A stretch of DNA of 64,000 nt, from positions 40,854 to 104,853 of the IMG/VR virus record IMGVR_UViG_3300046459_000427; one strand, 5' to 3'. A program made the position numbers and the translations under genes. Shown one piece after another: positions 6,519 to 61,110 of this stretch. Each line of letters starts with the position of its first letter. Positions within the stretch are counted from its first letter, which is position 1. The DNA comes from a virus. The notes under the pieces were generated by a model. The model was not told where the DNA came from. It did no database searches and was given only the letters and a program-made list of their open reading frames with translations.

Positions 6519-6821
6519 TCAGTGGACGAGGATCCGCAGAAGGATCGCGCTGATTTCTCCGGCGTCGGGGGTGTTCACCGTGGTGAATCCGGGCCGGGTG
6601 TCGAGGACGATTCCCCGGGGTGCGACGAAACTGTTGGCGATAGCGATTGCCTTGACGCCCTGATTCACCGCTCCGGCACCGATGGCTCGCAGGGTCACAC
6701 GCTTACCGTCATAGACGGCGTGCGAGATGGCGCTGGCCACACTGGCGGCGGACGACGAACTCTTGACGCGGAGGATGACCTCGTTACCGGCCCCCTCGTC
6801 GGCGTCGAACTGAACTCCCAT
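6519..6821 (-). CDS. spoVS: Stage V sporulation protein S (SpoVS) family protein
   Basis: ILRVKSSS..SVASAI...RAIGAGAVNQGVKAIAIANSFVAPRG...PGF...SAI closely matches the SpoVS signature (AIGAGALNQAVKAVAIARGFVAPSG). Confidence 0.9.
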   Translation of the reverse strand: MGVQFDADEGAGNEVILRVKSSSSAASVASAISHAVYDGKRVTLRAIGAGAVNQGVKAIAIANSFVAPRGIVLDTRPGFTTVNTPDAGEISAILLRILVH

Positions 6822-6895
6822 TTGTGTCTCCTGTTGCTCCGATTTGCATCACATTTTGAGAATACGGAGCAGCAGGAATCTTGTGTTAATGACAA

Positions 6896-9985: not shown

Positions 9986-10491
9986 GCGTTCATCCGTCCG
10001 GCGCGGTTCTCCCGGTCGCCACGGCCGACCCTGCGGGTCAGTTCACGGCTCAGGAGGGTGTTCTTGCGGTCGGCGCTGTCGTAGACGGCCTGGAGCATCT
10101 TCCGGTAGGCGTAGGCGGCTGTCTTGGCCTCCTGGGCCGCCACGTACTCCGGGTCCTCGTAGGCCATGGCCTTGGCGGCCGTCACGGTCTTCTGGTTGGA
10201 GTTGCGGACGGCCGACAGGGCCTTATGCGCTTCGAGTGTGTCGACGGACGACTTTTCGTCCACCTCCGCCGCTGCCAGGCGCGCTCCCGTGTACTCCACC
10301 CACGACGTCGTCCTGGCGAACAGGCTCATCAGTTCGCCGTCGCTTAGAGCGGTGGGATCCTCCGGCAGTTCGGGCACGTCGCCGTCCGGCTTCGGGGGCA
10401 GGTACAGATCCTCGCGCTCCAGTTTCCTGGTCGCCTTCTGGCTGGGCGTCTGTACCGCTTCCCAGCCCTTCCTCGCTACCGCTCGCGTCAT
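9982..10491 (-). CDS. Helical protein, possible UvsY-like recombination mediator
   Basis: GGAG RBS; helical C-terminus (AKAMAYEDPEY...AYRKML...LSRELTRR); sits in the recA/nuclease cluster; function is inference. Confidence 0.6.
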   Translation of the reverse strand: MTRAVARKGWEAVQTPSQKATRKLEREDLYLPPKPDGDVPELPEDPTALSDGELMSLFARTTSWVEYTGARLAAAEVDEKSSVDTLEAHKALSAVRNSNQKTVTAAKAMAYEDPEYVAAQEAKTAAYAYRKMLQAVYDSADRKNTLLSRELTRRVGRGDRENRAGRMNA

Positions 10492-11440
10492 CGGTGGTGG
10501 TCTCCCAGCAGGTGTTGAAGAACGGACAGTCCTTGCAGGTCTTCTTGTCCTGGCCGCAGAAGTCCGGCCGTGGTGGTGGCTTGCCCTTCTTCAGGGCGTA
10601 TTTGATGTCCAGAGCGGACTCGAACAGCGGCTCGGCGATCTCCGGGTTGTACTTGACGACGAATTCCTTGTGGGCCTGCGTCGCCTTGTACTCGTAGAGG
10701 AAGATCACCTTGTCGAAGGGAAGGCCCATCTCCTTGCACAGGCGCAGGTAGATCTGGGTCTGGCGTATGTGGCTGCCGAACGGGCGCCGCAGGGACTTCC
10801 ACAGGCCGTCTGTGTCGATGACGGTCTTGCCGTCCTCGGTCTTCACGGTGAACTGCCGCAGCAGCTCGGGCTGGTCGAAGCGGACGGTGCCGTTACCGAT
10901 GGACTTGACCTCGACGAGCGCGTTCAGGTCCTCAATGGCGCCGTCCTCGTGCCCGGCGATCAGGAACTCGCTCTCCGCCTGGAGGGGCACCTCGCAGTAC
11001 TCTAGGTAGACCGGGAGGGCGGCGAGGTCAGTGCGGTTACGGCAGGAGGGGCAGGCGATGCGTCCGGCCGTGCCCGTCTCCCAGTAGTCGCAGACAGGGC
11101 ACTTCCACTTCCCCCACAGGCGGCCCATCTGCTGGAGCCACGTCTGCCACTTCGCGTGGATCGCGTGACCCTCCATGAAGACGGTCTCCAGTTGCGCGGA
11201 GAAGTTCCGGCTCTTCTCGGGGGAAGCCCCCGCCAGCCTGTAGTAGGTCTGACGGGGGCACCAGTCGCTCTTGGCCATCTCCGACGGATGGATGATGTCC
11301 TGCCGACGGTCGGTCGGCTTGTCGTGCTCTTCCAGGAGGTGCTTGTGGATGTCGCCGAGGAGGACGGAATTACTCTTCTTCGTCTCCGCCAGCGACGCGA
11401 TCCGGCCAGATGGCTTCAAGGGTTTCTTTGCTCGGGGCAC
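10223..11440 (-). CDS. Cas4-like / PD-(D/E)XK exonuclease
   Basis: IHPSE..WCPR, GHAIH, GHEDG..VEVKS, QTQIY, C-x6-CKDCPFFNTCW Fe-S-type cysteines; start GTG 11440. Confidence 0.85.
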   Translation of the reverse strand: MPRAKKPLKPSGRIASLAETKKSNSVLLGDIHKHLLEEHDKPTDRRQDIIHPSEMAKSDWCPRQTYYRLAGASPEKSRNFSAQLETVFMEGHAIHAKWQTWLQQMGRLWGKWKCPVCDYWETGTAGRIACPSCRNRTDLAALPVYLEYCEVPLQAESEFLIAGHEDGAIEDLNALVEVKSIGNGTVRFDQPELLRQFTVKTEDGKTVIDTDGLWKSLRRPFGSHIRQTQIYLRLCKEMGLPFDKVIFLYEYKATQAHKEFVVKYNPEIAEPLFESALDIKYALKKGKPPPRPDFCGQDKKTCKDCPFFNTCWETTTDDASGSEEGLGSGTDAQPEGDQETGARGSVPAPEAGRRRARTAGGSHRSKRRRTDEPVRQDDVVGGVHGSAPGSGGGGRKVVRRHTRSA

Positions 11441-12088: not shown

Positions 12089-12221
12089 ATGAGGCCTCCA
12101 GGAGTGTGGCGAGGAGATTGAACTTCTCGTGGGACCGGCCCTGGCGCCGGGAGTACCGGACGCCAAGGGCCAGGATGTAAACGGCTGCTATGACCAGCAG
12201 CGCGGAGAGGATGGCCACCAT
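12009..12221 (-). CDS. Small membrane protein
   Basis: N-terminal TM helix; start overlaps recA stop. Confidence 0.5.
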   Translation of the reverse strand: MVAILSALLVIAAVYILALGVRYSRRQGRSHEKFNLLATLLEASYGGHAQEEPEAGAAGSGTPRRDGERG

Positions 12222-13405
12222 CAGGCGGCCTGGGTATGAAGCCCGTCGGCCTCTTCCGGCTTCGGCCGTCGGCTGACCTTCTTGGTGCCCGAGTTCTCGG
12301 CGGCCGTCAGGTCGTCCTCGGAGATGGAACGCTCATCCGCGTGCTGCGAGGCGGCGAGGACCTTTTCGTAGAGGAATTCCTGGAGGTCCAGGTCCTCTCG
12401 AATTGCGGCGAGGGTGTTCTCCTTGCTGTGCCAGCGAAGGACGGGCTTTCCCCTGTCGTCGTATTCGCCGTTGTCGACCTCGTAGTAAGCGCCCGCGCGC
12501 TTGATGACGTCGAAGAGGATCCCCATGATCATGATTTCCTTTGTGGTGTCGAAATCACCACGGGTGAAATTCAGATAGGGAGCGGAGCGGAAGTAGGCGT
12601 CGATCGTGGCGATCTGCTGCGGGGCCGCCGACTTGTTCTTGATGGTCTTCACCTTGATGACCTGGCCGACGTTCACCTTGCCCTTTCCGGGCCGAGGCTC
12701 CTGAATCCACTCGTCGCGTCGGACTTCCACCCTGGTGTAGAACGCATAATTCTTCGCGTTTCCGCCGGGGGTTGTGGTCGGCGTGCCGTGCGGGGAGAAC
12801 TTGCCGATGGCGTCGCGGTACTGGTTGATGACGATGCCGAGCAGCGGGCGGTCCTCGGGGTCGGTCATGCTGCGCTTCGTCGCGGCGCCGGACTTCCGGA
12901 AGAACTTGCCGGTGAGACGGGCGCCCAGCGCCATGGTCGCCTCGTCCATGTCCTTCTCGGACTCCTCGTCCGGTATGAGCGCCGGGTAGGAGTCGAGGAC
13001 GATCATGTCGACCGAGCGGGACGTCGCGAAGTCGAGCATGGTCTGGTAGGCGAATTCCATGGCCTGGGTGGGGACGACGATCACGCGGTCGTTGTCGACG
13101 CCCAGCGCTTCGGCCTGGTCGGTGTCGTAGTGCTCTGCGGCGATCCACAGGCACGTGAAGTCGGGGTCCTTCTTCTGGTTGGCGGCCAGCGTCTTGTAGA
13201 CGATGAAGGTCTTGCCGTGGGACTCACGGCCGATGACCTCGACCCACTGGTTGCCCGGCCAGCCACCGCCGAGGGCGATGTCCAGGGAGAGGGAGCCGGA
13301 GGTGAAGCGCTTGGCCACGCGCATGTCCGAGGCGAAACACACGGCACCCGGATGGGTCTTGTTGATCTTGGCGAGAAGTGCGAGGGCGTCCTTGTTCACG
13401 CTCAA
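12221..13405 (-). CDS. recA: RecA/UvsX-like recombinase
   Basis: SGSLSLDIALGGGWP, EVIGRESHGKT Walker A, IVLDS, INQYRDAIG, TPGGNAKNY, IKNK; start likely TTG 13405 or GTG 13399. Confidence 0.93.
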   Translation of the reverse strand: MSVNKDALALLAKINKTHPGAVCFASDMRVAKRFTSGSLSLDIALGGGWPGNQWVEVIGRESHGKTFIVYKTLAANQKKDPDFTCLWIAAEHYDTDQAEALGVDNDRVIVVPTQAMEFAYQTMLDFATSRSVDMIVLDSYPALIPDEESEKDMDEATMALGARLTGKFFRKSGAATKRSMTDPEDRPLLGIVINQYRDAIGKFSPHGTPTTTPGGNAKNYAFYTRVEVRRDEWIQEPRPGKGKVNVGQVIKVKTIKNKSAAPQQIATIDAYFRSAPYLNFTRGDFDTTKEIMIMGILFDVIKRAGAYYEVDNGEYDDRGKPVLRWHSKENTLAAIREDLDLQEFLYEKVLAASQHADERSISEDDLTAAENSGTKKVSRRPKPEEADGLHTQAA

Positions 13406-13434
13406 CAGGGGCCCCCGTAGGTATGAAGTCGCAT
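13402..13434 (-). CDS. Putative leader mini-ORF MRLHTYGGPC coupled to recA
   Basis: AGGAG RBS upstream of ATG 13434; TGA stop overlaps recA TTG (TTGA); contains the CTTCATACC motif. Confidence 0.5.
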   Translation of the reverse strand: MRLHTYGGPC

Positions 13435-18515: not shown

Positions 18516-19325
18516 TCAGTCGTTCAGGATCTCGCGGGCGATCTGCTTGAGTTCGTTGCGCGTGTTCACCTGGAGGACGTCCTCGTCGTACGCCTTGTCG
18601 TCGAACTCCTCCAGGTCCTCCTCGGTCAGGGGCTCGACGTCCCAGTCATCGAGGAGGTCCCGCTCCTTCACGGGGGTGATGTAGTAGGTCGTCTTGTTGT
18701 TCTTGGACTGCTTGGAGACGGAGAAGTACAGGTCGTCCCGGTTGATCGGCGCCGTCTTCTTGTCCTTGGAGTAGTTCTTGAGGATGTCCGCGACCATCGG
18801 GCCGAACTGCCAGATCTTGACCTGCGGGTCCTCGGGGTCGGTGAAGTCGACGACGTTGAAGCAGACCTGCTGGGAGGGCTTGTCGCCTGCGTCGTCGCAC
18901 AGGGGGCAGCGGGACTCCAGGCACGTCCAGGACCGCTTGCCCTTGCGCTCGATCCAGTGCTGGAGGAAGACCAGGAACGGCTCCTCGTCGAGGATCTTCA
19001 CGACCACGGCCTCGCCGGTCACCTTGAAGTTCTCGGGGAAGCCGGACGTGGCGCTCTTGGTCTTCTCGTACGAGCCCCATCCCTTGCCGCCGACCTTCGG
19101 GGTGGGCTCGTCGTCCTCGTCGTCCTCCTGGGAGCGACGCGAGCGACGGGAGGAGGTGTCGGCCTCCTCGGTATGAAGCGACTGGCGGCGCGAGCCACGG
19201 CGGGAGCCCCGGGCCGGACGCTCGTCCTCGTCGTCCTCCGGGAGGTTGTTGTCCTCCGGCTCGTCGGCGGGGGTGTAGGCCTCGGTGGACGCGGCGGTGC
19301 GGCGGCGGGTGAGGGTGCGGGGCAT
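18516..19325 (-). CDS. Probable single-stranded DNA-binding protein (T4 gp32-like)
   Basis: Disordered N-terminus then QHW...CLESRCPLC...FNVVD...KIWQFG...TTYYI; next to polA; start ATG 19325 with AGGAG. Confidence 0.65.
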   Translation of the reverse strand: MPRTLTRRRTAASTEAYTPADEPEDNNLPEDDEDERPARGSRRGSRRQSLHTEEADTSSRRSRRSQEDDEDDEPTPKVGGKGWGSYEKTKSATSGFPENFKVTGEAVVVKILDEEPFLVFLQHWIERKGKRSWTCLESRCPLCDDAGDKPSQQVCFNVVDFTDPEDPQVKIWQFGPMVADILKNYSKDKKTAPINRDDLYFSVSKQSKNNKTTYYITPVKERDLLDDWDVEPLTEEDLEEFDDKAYDEDVLQVNTRNELKQIAREILND

Positions 19326-23375: not shown

Positions 23376-24332
23376 TTAGAACCGTGCGAGCACGGATGAG
23401 TAGGCGTTGTCGACGGCGTAGGTGATCTCGCTGTCGGTCATGTCTCCGGGGTCCTTGGCGGACGTCTTGGAGTAGTCGAGGAAGCGCAGGGTCAGGCCTC
23501 GGCCGGTCCACTCCTTGCGCAGCCGGGCGCAGGCCTCGGTCCCGGCCTTGTCGTTGTCAAGGGCGATGACGACGGTGTCGAAGTGGTCGCGGATCAGGGA
23601 CATCTGGGCGTCGGAGACTCCGGCGCCGAAGGAGGCCAGCCCGGCCTTGTATCCCGCCGCGTGCAGCCGGGCCACGTCGAGAGGCGACTCGACCAGGATG
23701 GCGAGGTCGTCCTCGTAGGTATGAAGCCCGAAGAGGGTCTTCGACTTCGTCATGGAGTTGGGCCGGTTGCGGAAGTAGCGGGAGTTCTTCTCCTGCCAGC
23801 CCCAGAGCATGCCCGTCTCCGGGCAGCGGACCGGGACGATCCACATCTCGCGCTTGGCGTCCCACAGGACCTCGCAGGCGTCCGCGCTGGCGGGCCAGAA
23901 CTTCCGCTCTACGCACTCCTCGTAGGGCGGGGAGACGAACAGGGCCAGGGAGGCCTCATTGATGTGCTTGGTCGTGTCGACCTGGCTGGGCTGCTTCTTC
24001 GCCAGGAACCGCTTCACCCGCTCGATGCCGCCACGGGAGCGGACCCAGGCGACTGCGTCGGCGTGCGGGATGTCCAGGACGTCGCGGACGAGGACGACGA
24101 ACGGTCCTCGGTATCCGCAGGAGAAGCAGTTGAAATATCCTTCGTCGGATCGAATAGAAAATGATGGGTGCTTGTCTTTCTTTCCGGTGCGCGCCTCATG
24201 CATGGGGCACGGCATGTGAATCTCGTACTCCTGGACCTTGTAGTCCAGGCCGATCTCGTCCAGGCAGGCGATTACGTTGCCGGGAATGGGGGTGCCTACG
24301 GCATCCCATCCCTTGGCCTTCGCTCGAACCAT
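23376..24332 (-). CDS. dnaG: DNA primase (CHC2 zinc finger + TOPRIM)
   Basis: CPMH...PSFS...FNCFSCG; LVESPLD; ALDNDKAG; KDPGD. Confidence 0.9.
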   Translation of the reverse strand: MVRAKAKGWDAVGTPIPGNVIACLDEIGLDYKVQEYEIHMPCPMHEARTGKKDKHPSFSIRSDEGYFNCFSCGYRGPFVVLVRDVLDIPHADAVAWVRSRGGIERVKRFLAKKQPSQVDTTKHINEASLALFVSPPYEECVERKFWPASADACEVLWDAKREMWIVPVRCPETGMLWGWQEKNSRYFRNRPNSMTKSKTLFGLHTYEDDLAILVESPLDVARLHAAGYKAGLASFGAGVSDAQMSLIRDHFDTVVIALDNDKAGTEACARLRKEWTGRGLTLRFLDYSKTSAKDPGDMTDSEITYAVDNAYSSVLARF

Positions 24333-27282: not shown

Positions 27283-28290
27283 TCAGGACCAGTAGTCCTC
27301 GTTGAACCGGTTGTCTTCCATCGCGCTGGCGGCCTTGCCCAGCCTCTGGGCCAGCAGCCCACGGGCGGCCAGGAAGTCCTTCCAGGCGACCACGTTGTCC
27401 GAGCGCTGCCAGGACGACGACCAGTAGGTGATGATCATCTGCCGGATCTCGTCCCGCTCCATGCCCTGCGCCATCCACCGGCCGAAGTTGCCGGTGAGCG
27501 CCGAGAGGTTGGTCGTTCCGGGTACCGGATGGCCGACCTCCTGGGCTCTCTTGTCGAAGAACAGCGCCAGTTCCTCTGAAGGCCTCTGGGAGCGCTTCTT
27601 GGGAGGCCGCCGGACCGGAGGGGCCGGGGAGTCCTCCGAGGCCGGGAGATCGCCGTAGAGAGTGAACGACGGGGTGTTCTCTTCCAGAGCCTGCGAGACC
27701 ACGTAGGCCGGGTCGAGTTCCATCTCCGCCTGAGCCTGCTCCTCGGCCACCTGCTTCCGGGACTTCTTCCGGCCGCCACGCTTAGGTGCCGCGACCGCTC
27801 CCCAGCCCTTGGCTCCCGGCCTGGTCACAGGTTCCTCTTCCAGGGCGTCGCCCTGGAGATACGAAGTATCTCTATTACTTCTAGTAGGGATATTGGGGTT
27901 GGATGAAAGATCTGCACCCTGCAAATTTTGCAGGGGGGTCTTGTCCTGATTTGGACCATGCAAATTCTGCATGTCAACTACTCCCGCAACCGGCGCTTCG
28001 AGCCACTCCTCCACGGGGCGAATCCTGCGGACCACGGACGCGTACAGCGCGGCCTCGGGCGGCGCTTCTGCCTTCGGCACGGCCTCGATGATGCTCCGCT
28101 TCTCCAGGTTCCGCAGACAGTTGTAGACGCTGCGTTCGGACATGCGGGTGCGCTTGGCCAGGGTCTTGACGGACTCCCACATCATGCGGTGGTCGTCTCC
28201 TGCCGCGTCTGCGATACGCAGCAGCACCAGCAGGTCTCCATTGCCGACGGGGGCGTACTGCCACACCTCGGACATGATCAGGATGCTCAC
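27283..28290 (-). CDS. Replication initiator with N-terminal winged HTH
   Basis: LLVLLRIADAA...SVKTLAKRTRMSERSVYNCLRNLEK (HTH_36-like); lies upstream of the DnaC-like and DnaB genes as in lambdoid O-P modules. Confidence 0.8.
   Translation of the reverse strand: MSILIMSEVWQYAPVGNGDLLVLLRIADAAGDDHRMMWESVKTLAKRTRMSERSVYNCLRNLEKRSIIEAVPKAEAPPEAALYASVVRRIRPVEEWLEAPVAGVVDMQNLHGPNQDKTPLQNLQGADLSSNPNIPTRSNRDTSYLQGDALEEEPVTRPGAKGWGAVAAPKRGGRKKSRKQVAEEQAQAEMELDPAYVVSQALEENTPSFTLYGDLPASEDSPAPPVRRPPKKRSQRPSEELALFFDKRAQEVGHPVPGTTNLSALTGNFGRWMAQGMERDEIRQMIITYWSSSWQRSDNVVAWKDFLAARGLLAQRLGKAASAMEDNRFNEDYWS
27850..27975. other. Putative replication origin inside the initiator gene
   Basis: AT-rich patch plus two near-palindromes CTGCAAATTTTGCAG (27919) and ATGCAAATTCTGCAT (27958). 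Confidence 0.55.
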
Positions 28291-28334
28291 TCGGCGGCTC
28301 CGAGCAAGCGATAAGTATGAAGCGATATCCCCAT
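28287..28334 (-). CDS. Putative leader mini-ORF MGISLHTYRLLGAAE coupled to the initiator
   Basis: ATG 28334; TGA overlaps initiator GTG (GTGA); contains the CTTCATACT motif. Confidence 0.45.
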   Translation of the reverse strand: MGISLHTYRLLGAAE

Positions 28335-28385
28335 GCTAGGGTCTCTCTCATCTCGGGGTTTGTGGTGGGCCTCGGGGTGTGGTGG

Positions 28386-28445
28386 GCAAAGGCCCCCGGC
28401 AGTGGCTTGAAGGTCTTGAACCTCGCCAGCGCCGGGGGCCTTTGC
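28386..28445 (-). terminator. Long hairpin / terminator
   Basis: GCAAAGGCCCCCGGC-N30-GCCGGGGGCCTTTGC perfect 15-bp arms directly after the 28451 stop. Confidence 0.65.
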
Positions 28446-40290: not shown

Positions 40291-41428
40291 TGATATCCTC
40301 CAGAAGGCTCGACTCCCAGAACTGCTTGTTTCTCAGAACAGCCGGGACGCTGTCGAACTTGAATCGCTTGTTCGCATCGCTTCGGAATGTTACCGCGTAG
40401 GGCTGGTCCCTTTCCGCATCCACCGTGGTGGTGAACATCAATCCGGAGTTGCTCTTGTCCCGGTTGATGAGGTGCTTCGTACCAGTCACCATCCAACGGC
40501 CCGCACGGTCCGAAGACAGCGCACTTCCGGTGACGGTCACCAGCGTTCCCGGCGCAACCTTCGCTGTGCCGTACAGCGTGGCCTCCATGGTGATCCAGCC
40601 TCGTGAAGCAAGCGTGCGGGCTTCCATCAGCGCCTGCGCGTCCGCGTAGTTGTCGACCGCTCTGGCGGTGGTTATGGAGTTGAGGAACGCAGCCGTTCCC
40701 GTATTCGCCGCAGACGACGCCTTGACGACCCGCCCCGTCTTCGCGTCGAGGCCGGAAATGCTGCTCGTTCCCGCTGTCCCGTTCTCGCGGGGAATCATGG
40801 TGCCGGTAAGGATCGACAAATCCCGGAGGGTGTCCAGCACTCCCGGCTTCTGGTTCTTGTAGAACACGGGAATGTTCTGCGTGCGCTGGCCCAGCAGAAG
40901 AATGCGCGGGTCGAGGAAGTACAGCGTCGTCCCTTCGACCCAGAACCGGAAACCTACTTCGTTCGCCAGATCCTGGAGGAGTTTGAAATCACTCTGCCCG
41001 CTCTGCGCCCAGTAGGTGAGCCTGCGGGTGGACGGAGAGATGACGGTGCGCAGTCCGTTCTGGCGACCGACCTGGCGGGCGATGGAGGTGGGGCTTACGT
41101 TCTTCCACGACCGTGTGCGCTGGATGTTCAGCGGCAGGCTGGTGCCGATGCACACGTACCGCGTAGTGACCGACGTGGTGCCATGACTGGCCACGACGCT
41201 GGAGTGGTGCACGTAGCCGTACCAGCGGACGATGTCGTTGGGGCTGCGGCCGTAGTCGAGCACGACGGGAGCCAGCTCGGGGTAGGCGGTGCTGGCCGCG
41301 CCGGTCGTCACGTCCACGATCGCCATGGAGTGCGTGCCGTAACTCTCGCGGACTTCGACTCGGTTGATGAAGTTGTTGATCCGGGTGCCGGAGATGGTCA
41401 GGGCTGTGAAGGGGGTCGGCTCAGGCAT
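40280..41428 (-). CDS. Baseplate hub protein (gpD/gp27-like)
   Basis: AQSGQSDFKLLQDLANEVGFRFWVEGTTLYF; position between LysM-like gene and spike. Confidence 0.8.
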   Translation of the reverse strand: MPEPTPFTALTISGTRINNFINRVEVRESYGTHSMAIVDVTTGAASTAYPELAPVVLDYGRSPNDIVRWYGYVHHSSVVASHGTTSVTTRYVCIGTSLPLNIQRTRSWKNVSPTSIARQVGRQNGLRTVISPSTRRLTYWAQSGQSDFKLLQDLANEVGFRFWVEGTTLYFLDPRILLLGQRTQNIPVFYKNQKPGVLDTLRDLSILTGTMIPRENGTAGTSSISGLDAKTGRVVKASSAANTGTAAFLNSITTARAVDNYADAQALMEARTLASRGWITMEATLYGTAKVAPGTLVTVTGSALSSDRAGRWMVTGTKHLINRDKSNSGLMFTTTVDAERDQPYAVTFRSDANKRFKFDSVPAVLRNKQFWESSLLEDINVG

Positions 41429-60909: not shown

Positions 60910-60938
60910 TAGACGTAACTAAGAAGCCGTAGTATGGT
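60910..60938 (+). promoter_or_regulatory. Putative promoter for a leaderless transcript
   Basis: TAGACG-N17-TATGGT ending 7 nt before ATG 60946. Confidence 0.55.
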
Positions 60939-60945
60939 TCGCGTT

Positions 60946-61110
60946 ATGGACAACGCAGAGATCATCGACATCACGTCGCTTCATACCGACTCCCATGCGG
61001 AGCGCCCCAAGTCGACCCTGACCATCACCCGTCGCTCCTGGAGCACCGAGGACCGTCGGCGCCTCGCCACCCTCCTCTTCGGCCCCCGCCCGGGGGAGGA
61101 TGCCGCCTAG
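60946..61110 (+). CDS. Small protein upstream of serine recombinase (54 aa; RDF candidate)
   Basis: Own translation MDNAEIIDITSLHTDSHAERPKSTLTITRRSWSTEDRRRLATLLFGPRPGEDAA; promoter upstream; carries the motif in sense orientation. Confidence 0.6.
   Translation: MDNAEIIDITSLHTDSHAERPKSTLTITRRSWSTEDRRRLATLLFGPRPGEDAA

Follow-up and report, generated by a model that had tools for sequence, protein, structure and literature searches.

The stretch of DNA considered here, called the window in what follows, comprises 64,000 nucleotides (positions 40,854 to 104,853) of the virus record IMGVR_UViG_3300046459_000427, a complete genome of 104,853 bp with direct terminal repeats and 64.8% G+C in which nearly all genes share one strand. 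Within it lies rep, which heads an operon where matches to IstB_IS21/AAA (DnaC-like) and then to DnaB_C (DnaB-like) follow on its 3' side. An earlier note on this DNA had called rep a replication initiator, a reasonable label given its HTH_36 domain and the DnaC-like and DnaB-like genes 3' of it, and had described before it a small open reading frame (mini-ORF) at 28334-28287 joined to it by a GTGA overlap. This mini-ORF is real and its sequence is as claimed (ATG GGG ATA TCG CTT CAT ACT TAT CGC TTG CTC GGA GCC GCC GAG TGA), the GTG of rep at 28290-28288 being made up of the G of the last sense codon and the TG of the stop. The rep genes of loci L001 and L018 hold no internal ATG, so the overlapping codon is the real start. 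Codons 5-7 of the mini-ORF carry a polar word that recurs along the genome and, judged from the comparisons below, the repeated unit is this nucleotide word, CTT-CAT-AYC, of which LHT(Y) is merely one copy's translation.

The 8-mer CTTCATAC is the most over-represented in the window, with 20 copies on the gene strand against one on the other, about 50 times expectation. When the whole genome is counted with CTTCATA[C/T], 39 distinct copies are found with the consensus g-CTTCATACC-ta-s-g, and every one of them shares the frame of its ORF (frame 0), where it is read as CTT CAT AYC (Leu-His-Thr/Ile); from codon usage one would expect 0.025 copies in frame 0, 0.12 in frame 1 and 0.03 in frame 2, that is fewer than 0.2 in total with frame 1 the likeliest. 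The LHT tripeptide is 7-fold over-represented wholly through CTT-CAT, and other Leu-His pairs use CTG/CTC-CAC. Thirty-eight copies share their strand with the genes and the single reversed copy sits within a reversed gene, where three relatives carry their own version of the word (CTTAATACC) in the same orientation, which indicates that the word follows the gene and not the DNA strand. Long ORFs hold 35 of the copies and mini-ORFs the other four; none was found in plainly non-coding DNA. The copies are spread nearly one per gene: two dense regions contain 26 copies over 55 genes with a single gene having two, and placement at random by gene length left no gene doubly hit in only 5e-5 of trials. 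Copies also gather at gene boundaries, nine of the 39 lying at most 8 codons after a start codon, most of them with a good Shine-Dalgarno (SD) sequence (binomial P=5e-6), and ten at most 14 codons before a stop (P=7e-5); when the mini-ORFs are set aside the enrichment is P=0.006 for starts and P=0.017 for stops. The 17-kb early region (19.4-36.4 kb), which holds 9 of the 14 sigma-70-type promoters, has no copy at all. Capsid and tail genes and a small gene next to the integrase are among the word-bearing genes, and with 39 such places a control specific to lytic or replication commitment, as the earlier note had envisaged, is not supported. A literature search for the four 9-mers returned only unrelated primer matches.

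About 90 related IMG/VR loci were retrieved with the initiator, RecA, a 411-aa protein and the integrase as queries. Relatives with a RecA identity of at least 80% form a single clade in the RecA tree (support 99/98), which splits into two types: A-type phages, such as the present one, carry CTTCATA[C/T]C and B-type phages carry CTTAATA[C/T]C and practically no CTTCATA[C/T]C. Each of 70 related loci has essentially one type of word, always on the gene strand in A-type and B-type relatives alike. B-type phages form a basal polytomy in this tree and either type may be ancestral. A blastn search against phage records gave no close relative, the nearest named phages (BRock, GiJojo and others of the genus Borockvirus; terminase ~60%) do not carry the word, and neither type of it occurs in the more distant metagenomic relatives (RecA at most 64%). 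One of these distant relatives without the motif, L058 (IMGVR_UViG_3300012942_000038), has six copies of TTCTAGAC, all on one strand, at gene junctions just 5' of SD sequences, and two others (L057 and L061) show a weak GAGAAGTTGG signal.

The host genus of the clade is Streptomyces, as named by an integrated prophage of the clade in Streptomyces sp. NPDC002088 (L156, NZ_JBEOXO010000018.1, ~64-183 kb) whose terminase is 91% identical; the phage itself encodes serine and tyrosine recombinases. This prophage has 40 copies of the word along ~118 kb of a single contig (one of them reversed relative to the other 39), and the remaining 10.6 Mb of the NPDC002088 genome has ~32 on both strands. The confinement of the word to the prophage, together with the existence of an integrated relative, indicates that the word is a phage feature and that the clade is temperate. 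The host copies also serve as a control for the frame: none of the 13 (out of 32) whose phase is clear lies in sense frame 0, nine reading GGT-ATG-AAG from the opposite strand and four TTC-ATA-CC, so frame 0 is not a product of the Streptomyces coding background. Additionally, the host genome is not enriched for the word, so that the over-representation and skew in the host chromosome by which a Chi-like element is recognized are lacking; this argues against a host regulon as well as against Chi.

Conservation in homologues, which the earlier note had set beforehand as the test of its proposal, was followed in 18 initiator loci that reduce to 10 haplotypes. Nine of the 10 keep the ATG, the frame and the 4-nt stop/start overlap, and in eight of them the ORF is 15 codons long, the word occupies codons 5-7 and the end is GTGA, TTGA or ATGA. 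Codons 2-4 and 8-15 vary widely between haplotypes (MAVSLHTYRFLGAAE, MPLPLHTYRLGRAGN and, in B-type, MSSRLNINGGFGAAE). Locus L016 has a 12-codon ORF, exactly 9 nt shorter in frame, with the GTGA end kept; in L006 ten codons are changed and the overlap is kept; and in L014 the same ATG, three codons and word open a long ORF. The recA mini-ORF with its 4-nt overlap (MRLHTYGGPC, TTGA) is equally real, and it behaves in a similar manner. In all B-type phages recA itself starts at that SD and ATG, in frame (MPLNTC...). A-type recA genes differ from these by an 8-nt indel and have instead a 10-codon ORF whose TGA overlaps a TTG or GTG start; five A-type haplotypes differ in the last codons and all of them keep the 10-codon ORF and the TTGA/GTGA overlap. 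Both mini-ORFs reading L-H-T-Y on which the earlier note relied thus exist, but the genome has four motif-bearing mini-ORFs and not two (the other two lie outside the window), and what they share is the nucleotide word and not LHTY. The unit at 18785 ends 8 nt 5' of the ATG of a gene for a 254-aa HTH_17 membrane protein; in relatives this site holds a 6-codon SD-led mini-ORF or else the C-terminal end of the preceding gene, with CTT-NAT-ACC-TAG as the ending in every case. Motif and TAG are followed there by an inverted partner, and the first base of the pair co-varies with the type of word (CATACC..GGTATG in A-type versus AATACC..GGTATT in B-type). This inverted pair could be a hairpin or a dyad over the start of the HTH_17 gene. 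From these alignments the constant unit is a start codon, a few codons and the word, followed either by the gene itself or by a short frame coupled to the gene.

The change between the two types is a concerted one. In the rep region seven of the nine B-type copies of L009 sit at CTTCATA sites of the present genome and read CTTAATA, the fourth base having gone from C to A and the His codon to an Asn codon, and at the position of the rep mini-ORF motif B-type phages read CTTAATATC. Such a one-base switch at the same positions implies that whatever reads the word must co-evolve with the phage. The peptide follows no comparable rule. One orthologous site encodes L-H-T, L-N-T or L-K-A in different phages, and an orthologous genic site reads CTG CAC CCG TAC here (L-H-P-Y in common codons) and CTT CAT ACC TAC in relatives; L-H-P-Y kept while the word is lost, and an LHT excess that arises only via CTT-CAT, indicate that the signal is in the nucleotides and not in the peptide. 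This bears directly on the leader peptide that the earlier note had in mind, in which an LHTY nascent peptide or a His-codon sensor would stall the ribosome and attenuate rep. In favour of such a leader, a short ORF with the rare codons CTT and CAT precedes a key gene and overlaps it, but the residues around L-H-T vary freely (MGISLHTYRLLGAAE, MPLPLHTYRLGRAGN or MSSRLNINGGFGAAE according to haplotype), with only L-H/N-T/I constant and L-N-I in the sister lineage; His (or Asn) is encoded only once, neither a terminator nor an alternative pairing was found in the stretch from the mini-ORF to rep, and the same word is found in ~35 ordinary proteins. A peptide-specific leader is thus scarcely credible, and attenuation is not supported.

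Positions of the features discussed (window numbering unless another record or a place outside the window is given)
Feature	Position	Strand	Details
rep mini-ORF	28287..28334	-	ATG 28334-28332 and 14 sense codons, TGA 28289-28287; peptide MGISLHTYRLLGAAE
GTGA overlap of mini-ORF and rep	28287..28290	-
Polar motif copy CTTCATACT plus TAT	28311..28322	-	mini-ORF codons 5-8; core 9-mer 28314-28322
rep	27283..28290	-	335 aa, GTG start; Pfam HTH_36, E=6e-7
rep SD, GGAG	28298..28301	-	within the mini-ORF, 7 nt 5' of GTG
Hairpin enclosing rep SD and GTG	28285..28309	-	10 bp, predicted by RNAfold
Mini-ORF SD (weak), purine tract GAGAGAG	28343..28349	-	8 nt 5' of ATG
TAGCAT (conserved TAnCAT)	28333..28338	-	overlaps ATG; fits a -10-like hexamer
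CCCACCACA, two direct copies	28361..28386	-	each followed by CCCCGAG; between strong hairpin and mini-ORF
Strong hairpin	28390..28440	-	-47 kcal/mol, no U-tract; 3' of upstream 435-aa gene
recA mini-ORF, MRLHTYGGPC	13402..13434	-	ATG 13434, SD AGGAG, TTGA overlap, motif 13420-13428
recA	12221..13405	-	TTG start at 13405; Pfam RecA, E=1e-41
Mini-ORF unit 19382	outside window		GGGAGG-5 nt-GTG, 17 codons, ends on GTG of 61-aa gene
Mini-ORF unit 18785	outside window		8 codons, GGAGGT SD at 9 nt, begins on upstream gene's stop
Motif, TAG and inverted partner	L075 18740..18790	-
Only other-strand copy of the word	60979..60987	+	in frame (L-H-T) in 58-aa ORF 60934-61110, upstream of serine integrase
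DnaG-type primase	23376..24332	-
SpoVS homologue	6519..6824	-	PF04232, E=2e-21
64-aa protein	L075 7299..7490	-
tRNA-His(GUG)	L075 9573..9659	-	86 nt
c-di-AMP (ydaO-type) riboswitch	L075 (G000:C1) 10453..10586, outside window	-	RF00379, 68.8 bits (gathering score 38), E=2e-15

The mini-ORF before rep covers the SD of rep, and RNAfold places this SD and the GTG within a hairpin (see table) while leaving the word unpaired on its 5' side; other haplotypes also have a GC-rich hairpin over the SD according to RNAfold, in differing registers, so that it is not one conserved structure. Upstream open reading frames (uORFs) coupled to the next gene by termination and reinitiation, with ATGA or GTGA overlaps and a hairpin-held SD that becomes unmasked, are known from many phage operons. 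The present case resembles them in that a short ORF has its stop on the next start, the SD and start lie in a predicted hairpin, and frame and overlap are kept through sequence change and indels; the translational coupling proposed by the earlier note is therefore well supported at rep and recA, where frame and overlap are conserved in relatives. It differs from them in that the unit recurs four times with the same 9-12 nt word fixed a few codons past the start, and in that the same start is the gene's own start in sister lineages. Coupled small ORFs were also found without the word in a mini-ORF scan, mostly with weak SDs, and the association is not exclusive. As to ribosome binding to the mini-ORFs themselves, the rep copy has only a weak purine tract, at whose position relatives carry GGAG or GGGAAG. 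The SDs are good in the recA, 19382 and 18785 units. A frameshift from the mini-ORF into rep was rejected as a conserved feature because the B-type word is TAA in that frame.

On its own, a 16-codon ORF could be due to chance: such ORFs are common in a GC-rich spacer of 160 nt, and the probability of meeting no stop, estimated at ~0.74 per haplotype, is not significant. The comparative pattern and the motif statistics do exceed chance. An ORF with no function of its own is very unlikely in view of the 9 nt deleted in frame, the fusions seen for L014 and for recA of B-type phages, and the four parallel units in one genome.

Another explanation for the conserved ATG is a promoter. The hexamer over it reads TAGCAT, TACCAT, TATCAT or TAACAT, that is TA-n-CAT invariant in 10 of 10 haplotypes while the third base takes all four values, and it could be the -10 element of rep, with the ATG kept only as part of it, a transcript starting a few bases 5' of the word, and an untranslated mini-ORF; the strong hairpin farther upstream could be where the previous transcript ends. 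Scanning both intergenic regions for promoters and terminators gave nothing, with no -35 and no full sigma-70 promoter found, and the only hairpin between the mini-ORF and rep is the one that covers the SD, with no terminator there. Moreover, in L014 the same ATG opens a long ORF and is thus transcribed; the recA, 19382 and 18785 units lack TAnnnT at this place and yet have good SDs; and a -10 needs neither the invariant G that follows the hexamer nor the invariant C at position four. A promoter therefore appears improbable as the cause of the conservation. Between the strong hairpin and the mini-ORF, the tandem CCCACCACA...CCCCGAG repeat is nearly invariant in all relatives and may be a regulator site. 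A hairpin followed by the motif was rejected as a general rule, only a few of 44 strong hairpins preceding the word. Rfam gave no match in the window.

The reading we favour, tentatively and at somewhat short of an even chance, is that the mini-ORF is a translated adaptor that places the element in the ribosome-loading region of rep, where a factor particular to the phage lineage recognizes it on the mRNA. Ribosomes would start at ATG 28334 and read the 15 codons through the hairpin over the SD and GTG of rep; translation of the mini-ORF would melt this hairpin, and ribosomes would stop at the TGA within GTGA and restart on rep by termination-reinitiation. In this manner the mini-ORF would bring rep under the control of the element without placing Leu-His-Thr in the Rep protein, as it would for recA and two more genes, and recognition of the element, g-CTT-CAT-AYC-ta, would take place on the mRNA, at or close to a ribosome that is translating or initiating. 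Translation of the mini-ORF in this phage and action of the element on RNA rather than on DNA are things we infer, as are the factor's identity and the sign of its effect (repression or activation). Among public sequencing runs only rhizosphere and soil DNA turned up, and none of RNA. A reader at the level of mRNA or translation is the best fit because the word tracks gene direction, is locked in frame, occurs nearly once per gene, clusters at gene boundaries and is nowhere plainly non-coding, and a lineage-specific factor is suggested because the sister lineage has changed the fourth base at the same positions genome-wide.

Several points weigh against this adaptor reading. The SD of the mini-ORF is weak and rep has its own GGAG, so that coupling may be dispensable, and the conserved ATG lies in the conserved TAnCAT, a possible -10 element. 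In the other two frames the B-type word gives TAA, a stop, or TTA-ATA, codons almost unused in this genome (TTA 7 times and ATA 32 times in ~28,500 codons). Should the B-type be ancestral, the word would have been forced into frame 0 and the A-type would have inherited this position, giving a frame lock without translation. About 24 copies lie deep in genes, where a role in initiation is hard to picture. Finally, the search for a reader gave no identified factor, its best candidate being a 64-aa protein with no informative fold match, and the tRNA-His correlation described below is a single evolutionary event.

A variant in which the ribosome does the reading is that the word is decoded as a three-codon unit, CUU-NAU-AYC, with a factor of the phage lineage and at most once per cistron save in one case, as a phage-encoded, context-extended counterpart of bldA control that would gate ~40 genes and reach others, such as rep and recA, through the mini-ORF adaptors; we consider it unlikely, though still worth keeping in view. 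In Streptomyces, bldA/TTA control relies on an in-frame rare codon, usually one per gene and often near the 5' end. The host genus and the in-frame signal are the same here, but 8-9 bases are fixed instead of one codon, CTT and CAT are rare in this genome and not near-absent like TTA, and there is no dedicated CUU tRNA. T4 RegA-type repressors, in which a single phage factor targets many replication-gene mRNAs around their starts, would account for the copies close to starts but not for those deep in genes, and no RegA homologue was found. In Cluster K mycobacteriophages, start-associated sequences (SAS) precede the start codon and contain the SD (PMC3203893). They are alike in being a repeated phage-specific word tied to the start regions of a subset of genes, whereas the word described here is downstream of starts or anywhere in ORFs, and in frame.

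The main rival of the adaptor reading is a stoperator-like element read on DNA, in which a regulator such as an immunity repressor binds the duplex word and affects RNA polymerase in an orientation-dependent manner, the mini-ORFs being relics of gene N-termini. Stoperators of Cluster A mycobacteriophages, bound by L5 gp71-type repressors, are tens of asymmetric 13-nt sites in one orientation with a consensus that varies by lineage (PMC6550527, PMC9283540). The likeness is considerable: ~39 asymmetric sites in one orientation relative to transcription, a word that co-varies with lineage, and a temperate actinophage with recombinases and an integrated Streptomyces relative; additionally, the frame lock could be a legacy of the B-type word, which a stop and rare codons constrain in the other frames, and the co-varying inverted repeat at the 18785 site could be a dyad operator. 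On the other hand, the word here has 9-12 nt, lies almost only in ORFs, in one frame and with at most one copy in all but one gene; 35 copies are in long ORFs and four in SD-led mini-ORFs, and plainly non-coding DNA, where a DNA site would cost least, has none. Neither the near one-per-gene rule nor the clustering after starts is predicted by such an element. Sites at early promoters and between genes, as expected of stoperators, are not seen (0 copies at 19.4-36.4 kb), and at the promoters of this region a separate dyad, TGTCAA-N18-TTGACA, is found instead. About 10 of these dyads occur genome-wide and overlap -35-like hexamers (e.g. G000:C1 61900, 50570, 30154 and 12972). No repressor was identified, no homologue search having been made for one. 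A stoperator-like role is therefore doubtful, although it has enough in its favour to be taken seriously.

A strand-specific function in DNA, such as a Chi-like hotspot, a primase start site, or a nick or packaging signal, would account for nearly all copies being on one strand. It would also give a place to the DnaG-type primase, in which the two lineages show 14 fixed residue differences; 11 of these fall at residues 26-133, in or next to the zinc-binding region (zinc ribbon). The reversed copy, which follows a reversed gene and shows the same base switch in relatives, conflicts with the primase as reader and with strand-bound functions generally; the host is not enriched for the word, contrary to Chi, and the frame lock and the near one-per-gene rule are left unexplained, which makes this class of explanation very improbable.

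The comparison of A-type and B-type proteins made in search of the reader covered ~60% of the genome. The best candidate in it is a 64-aa protein whose identity is 73% or more within the A-type and 51-56% between A-type and B-type, with the differences between lineages forming a block on a predicted helix; in every lineage the word lies ~10 nt upstream of the SD of its gene. Its predicted structure is beta-beta-alpha-beta, with a mean predicted local distance difference test (pLDDT) score of 82, and it belongs to no known family, the best Foldseek matches having E 0.18 or worse and Z at most 5.3 and an Atlas search giving nothing. Profiles PF00940 (T7-like polymerase) and PF04542 (sigma-70 region 2) found no match in the genome, PF00940 matching no control genome either and divergent sigma factors being liable to escape; among twenty proteins of the early region there were only three Pfam matches (DUF2786, DUF7168 and a sub-threshold GNAT), none nucleic-acid-binding. 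A guide RNA complementary to the word was rejected as a candidate since GGTATGAAG occurs in the sense direction only opposite the reversed copy. The window also encodes a SpoVS homologue, an observation in an actinophage, highly conserved in both lineages; it shows no lineage-specific change that would mark it as the reader.

With respect to tRNAs, all clade members have a tRNA-Asn(GUU), whereas a tRNA-His(GUG) is present in 8 of 12 relatives with the CAT type of word and in none of 8 with the AAT type, a suggestive distribution that represents a single event. This tRNA-His has the G-1:C73 pair and a long variable arm, and its D, variable and T arms resemble those of the phage's own tRNA-Leu(CAA). 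A full-length cyclic di-AMP (c-di-AMP, ydaO-type) riboswitch lies within the phage tRNA cluster.

A coupled uORF before a phage initiator is ordinary, but its word is unusual. In a family of ~105-kb temperate Streptomyces phages about a quarter of the genes are marked with this word, almost always once and locked in direction and frame, and a dedicated reader co-evolving with ~40 sites is implied. The system is open to experiment: what looks like a related prophage is present in a Streptomyces strain in culture, and the word's natural variants, two in number, form a built-in specificity control. The anatomy of the word (in frame, nearly one per gene, by starts and on mini-ORF adaptors) points to the mRNA and the ribosome rather than to DNA and, if this is true, it would represent a new layer of phage gene control.

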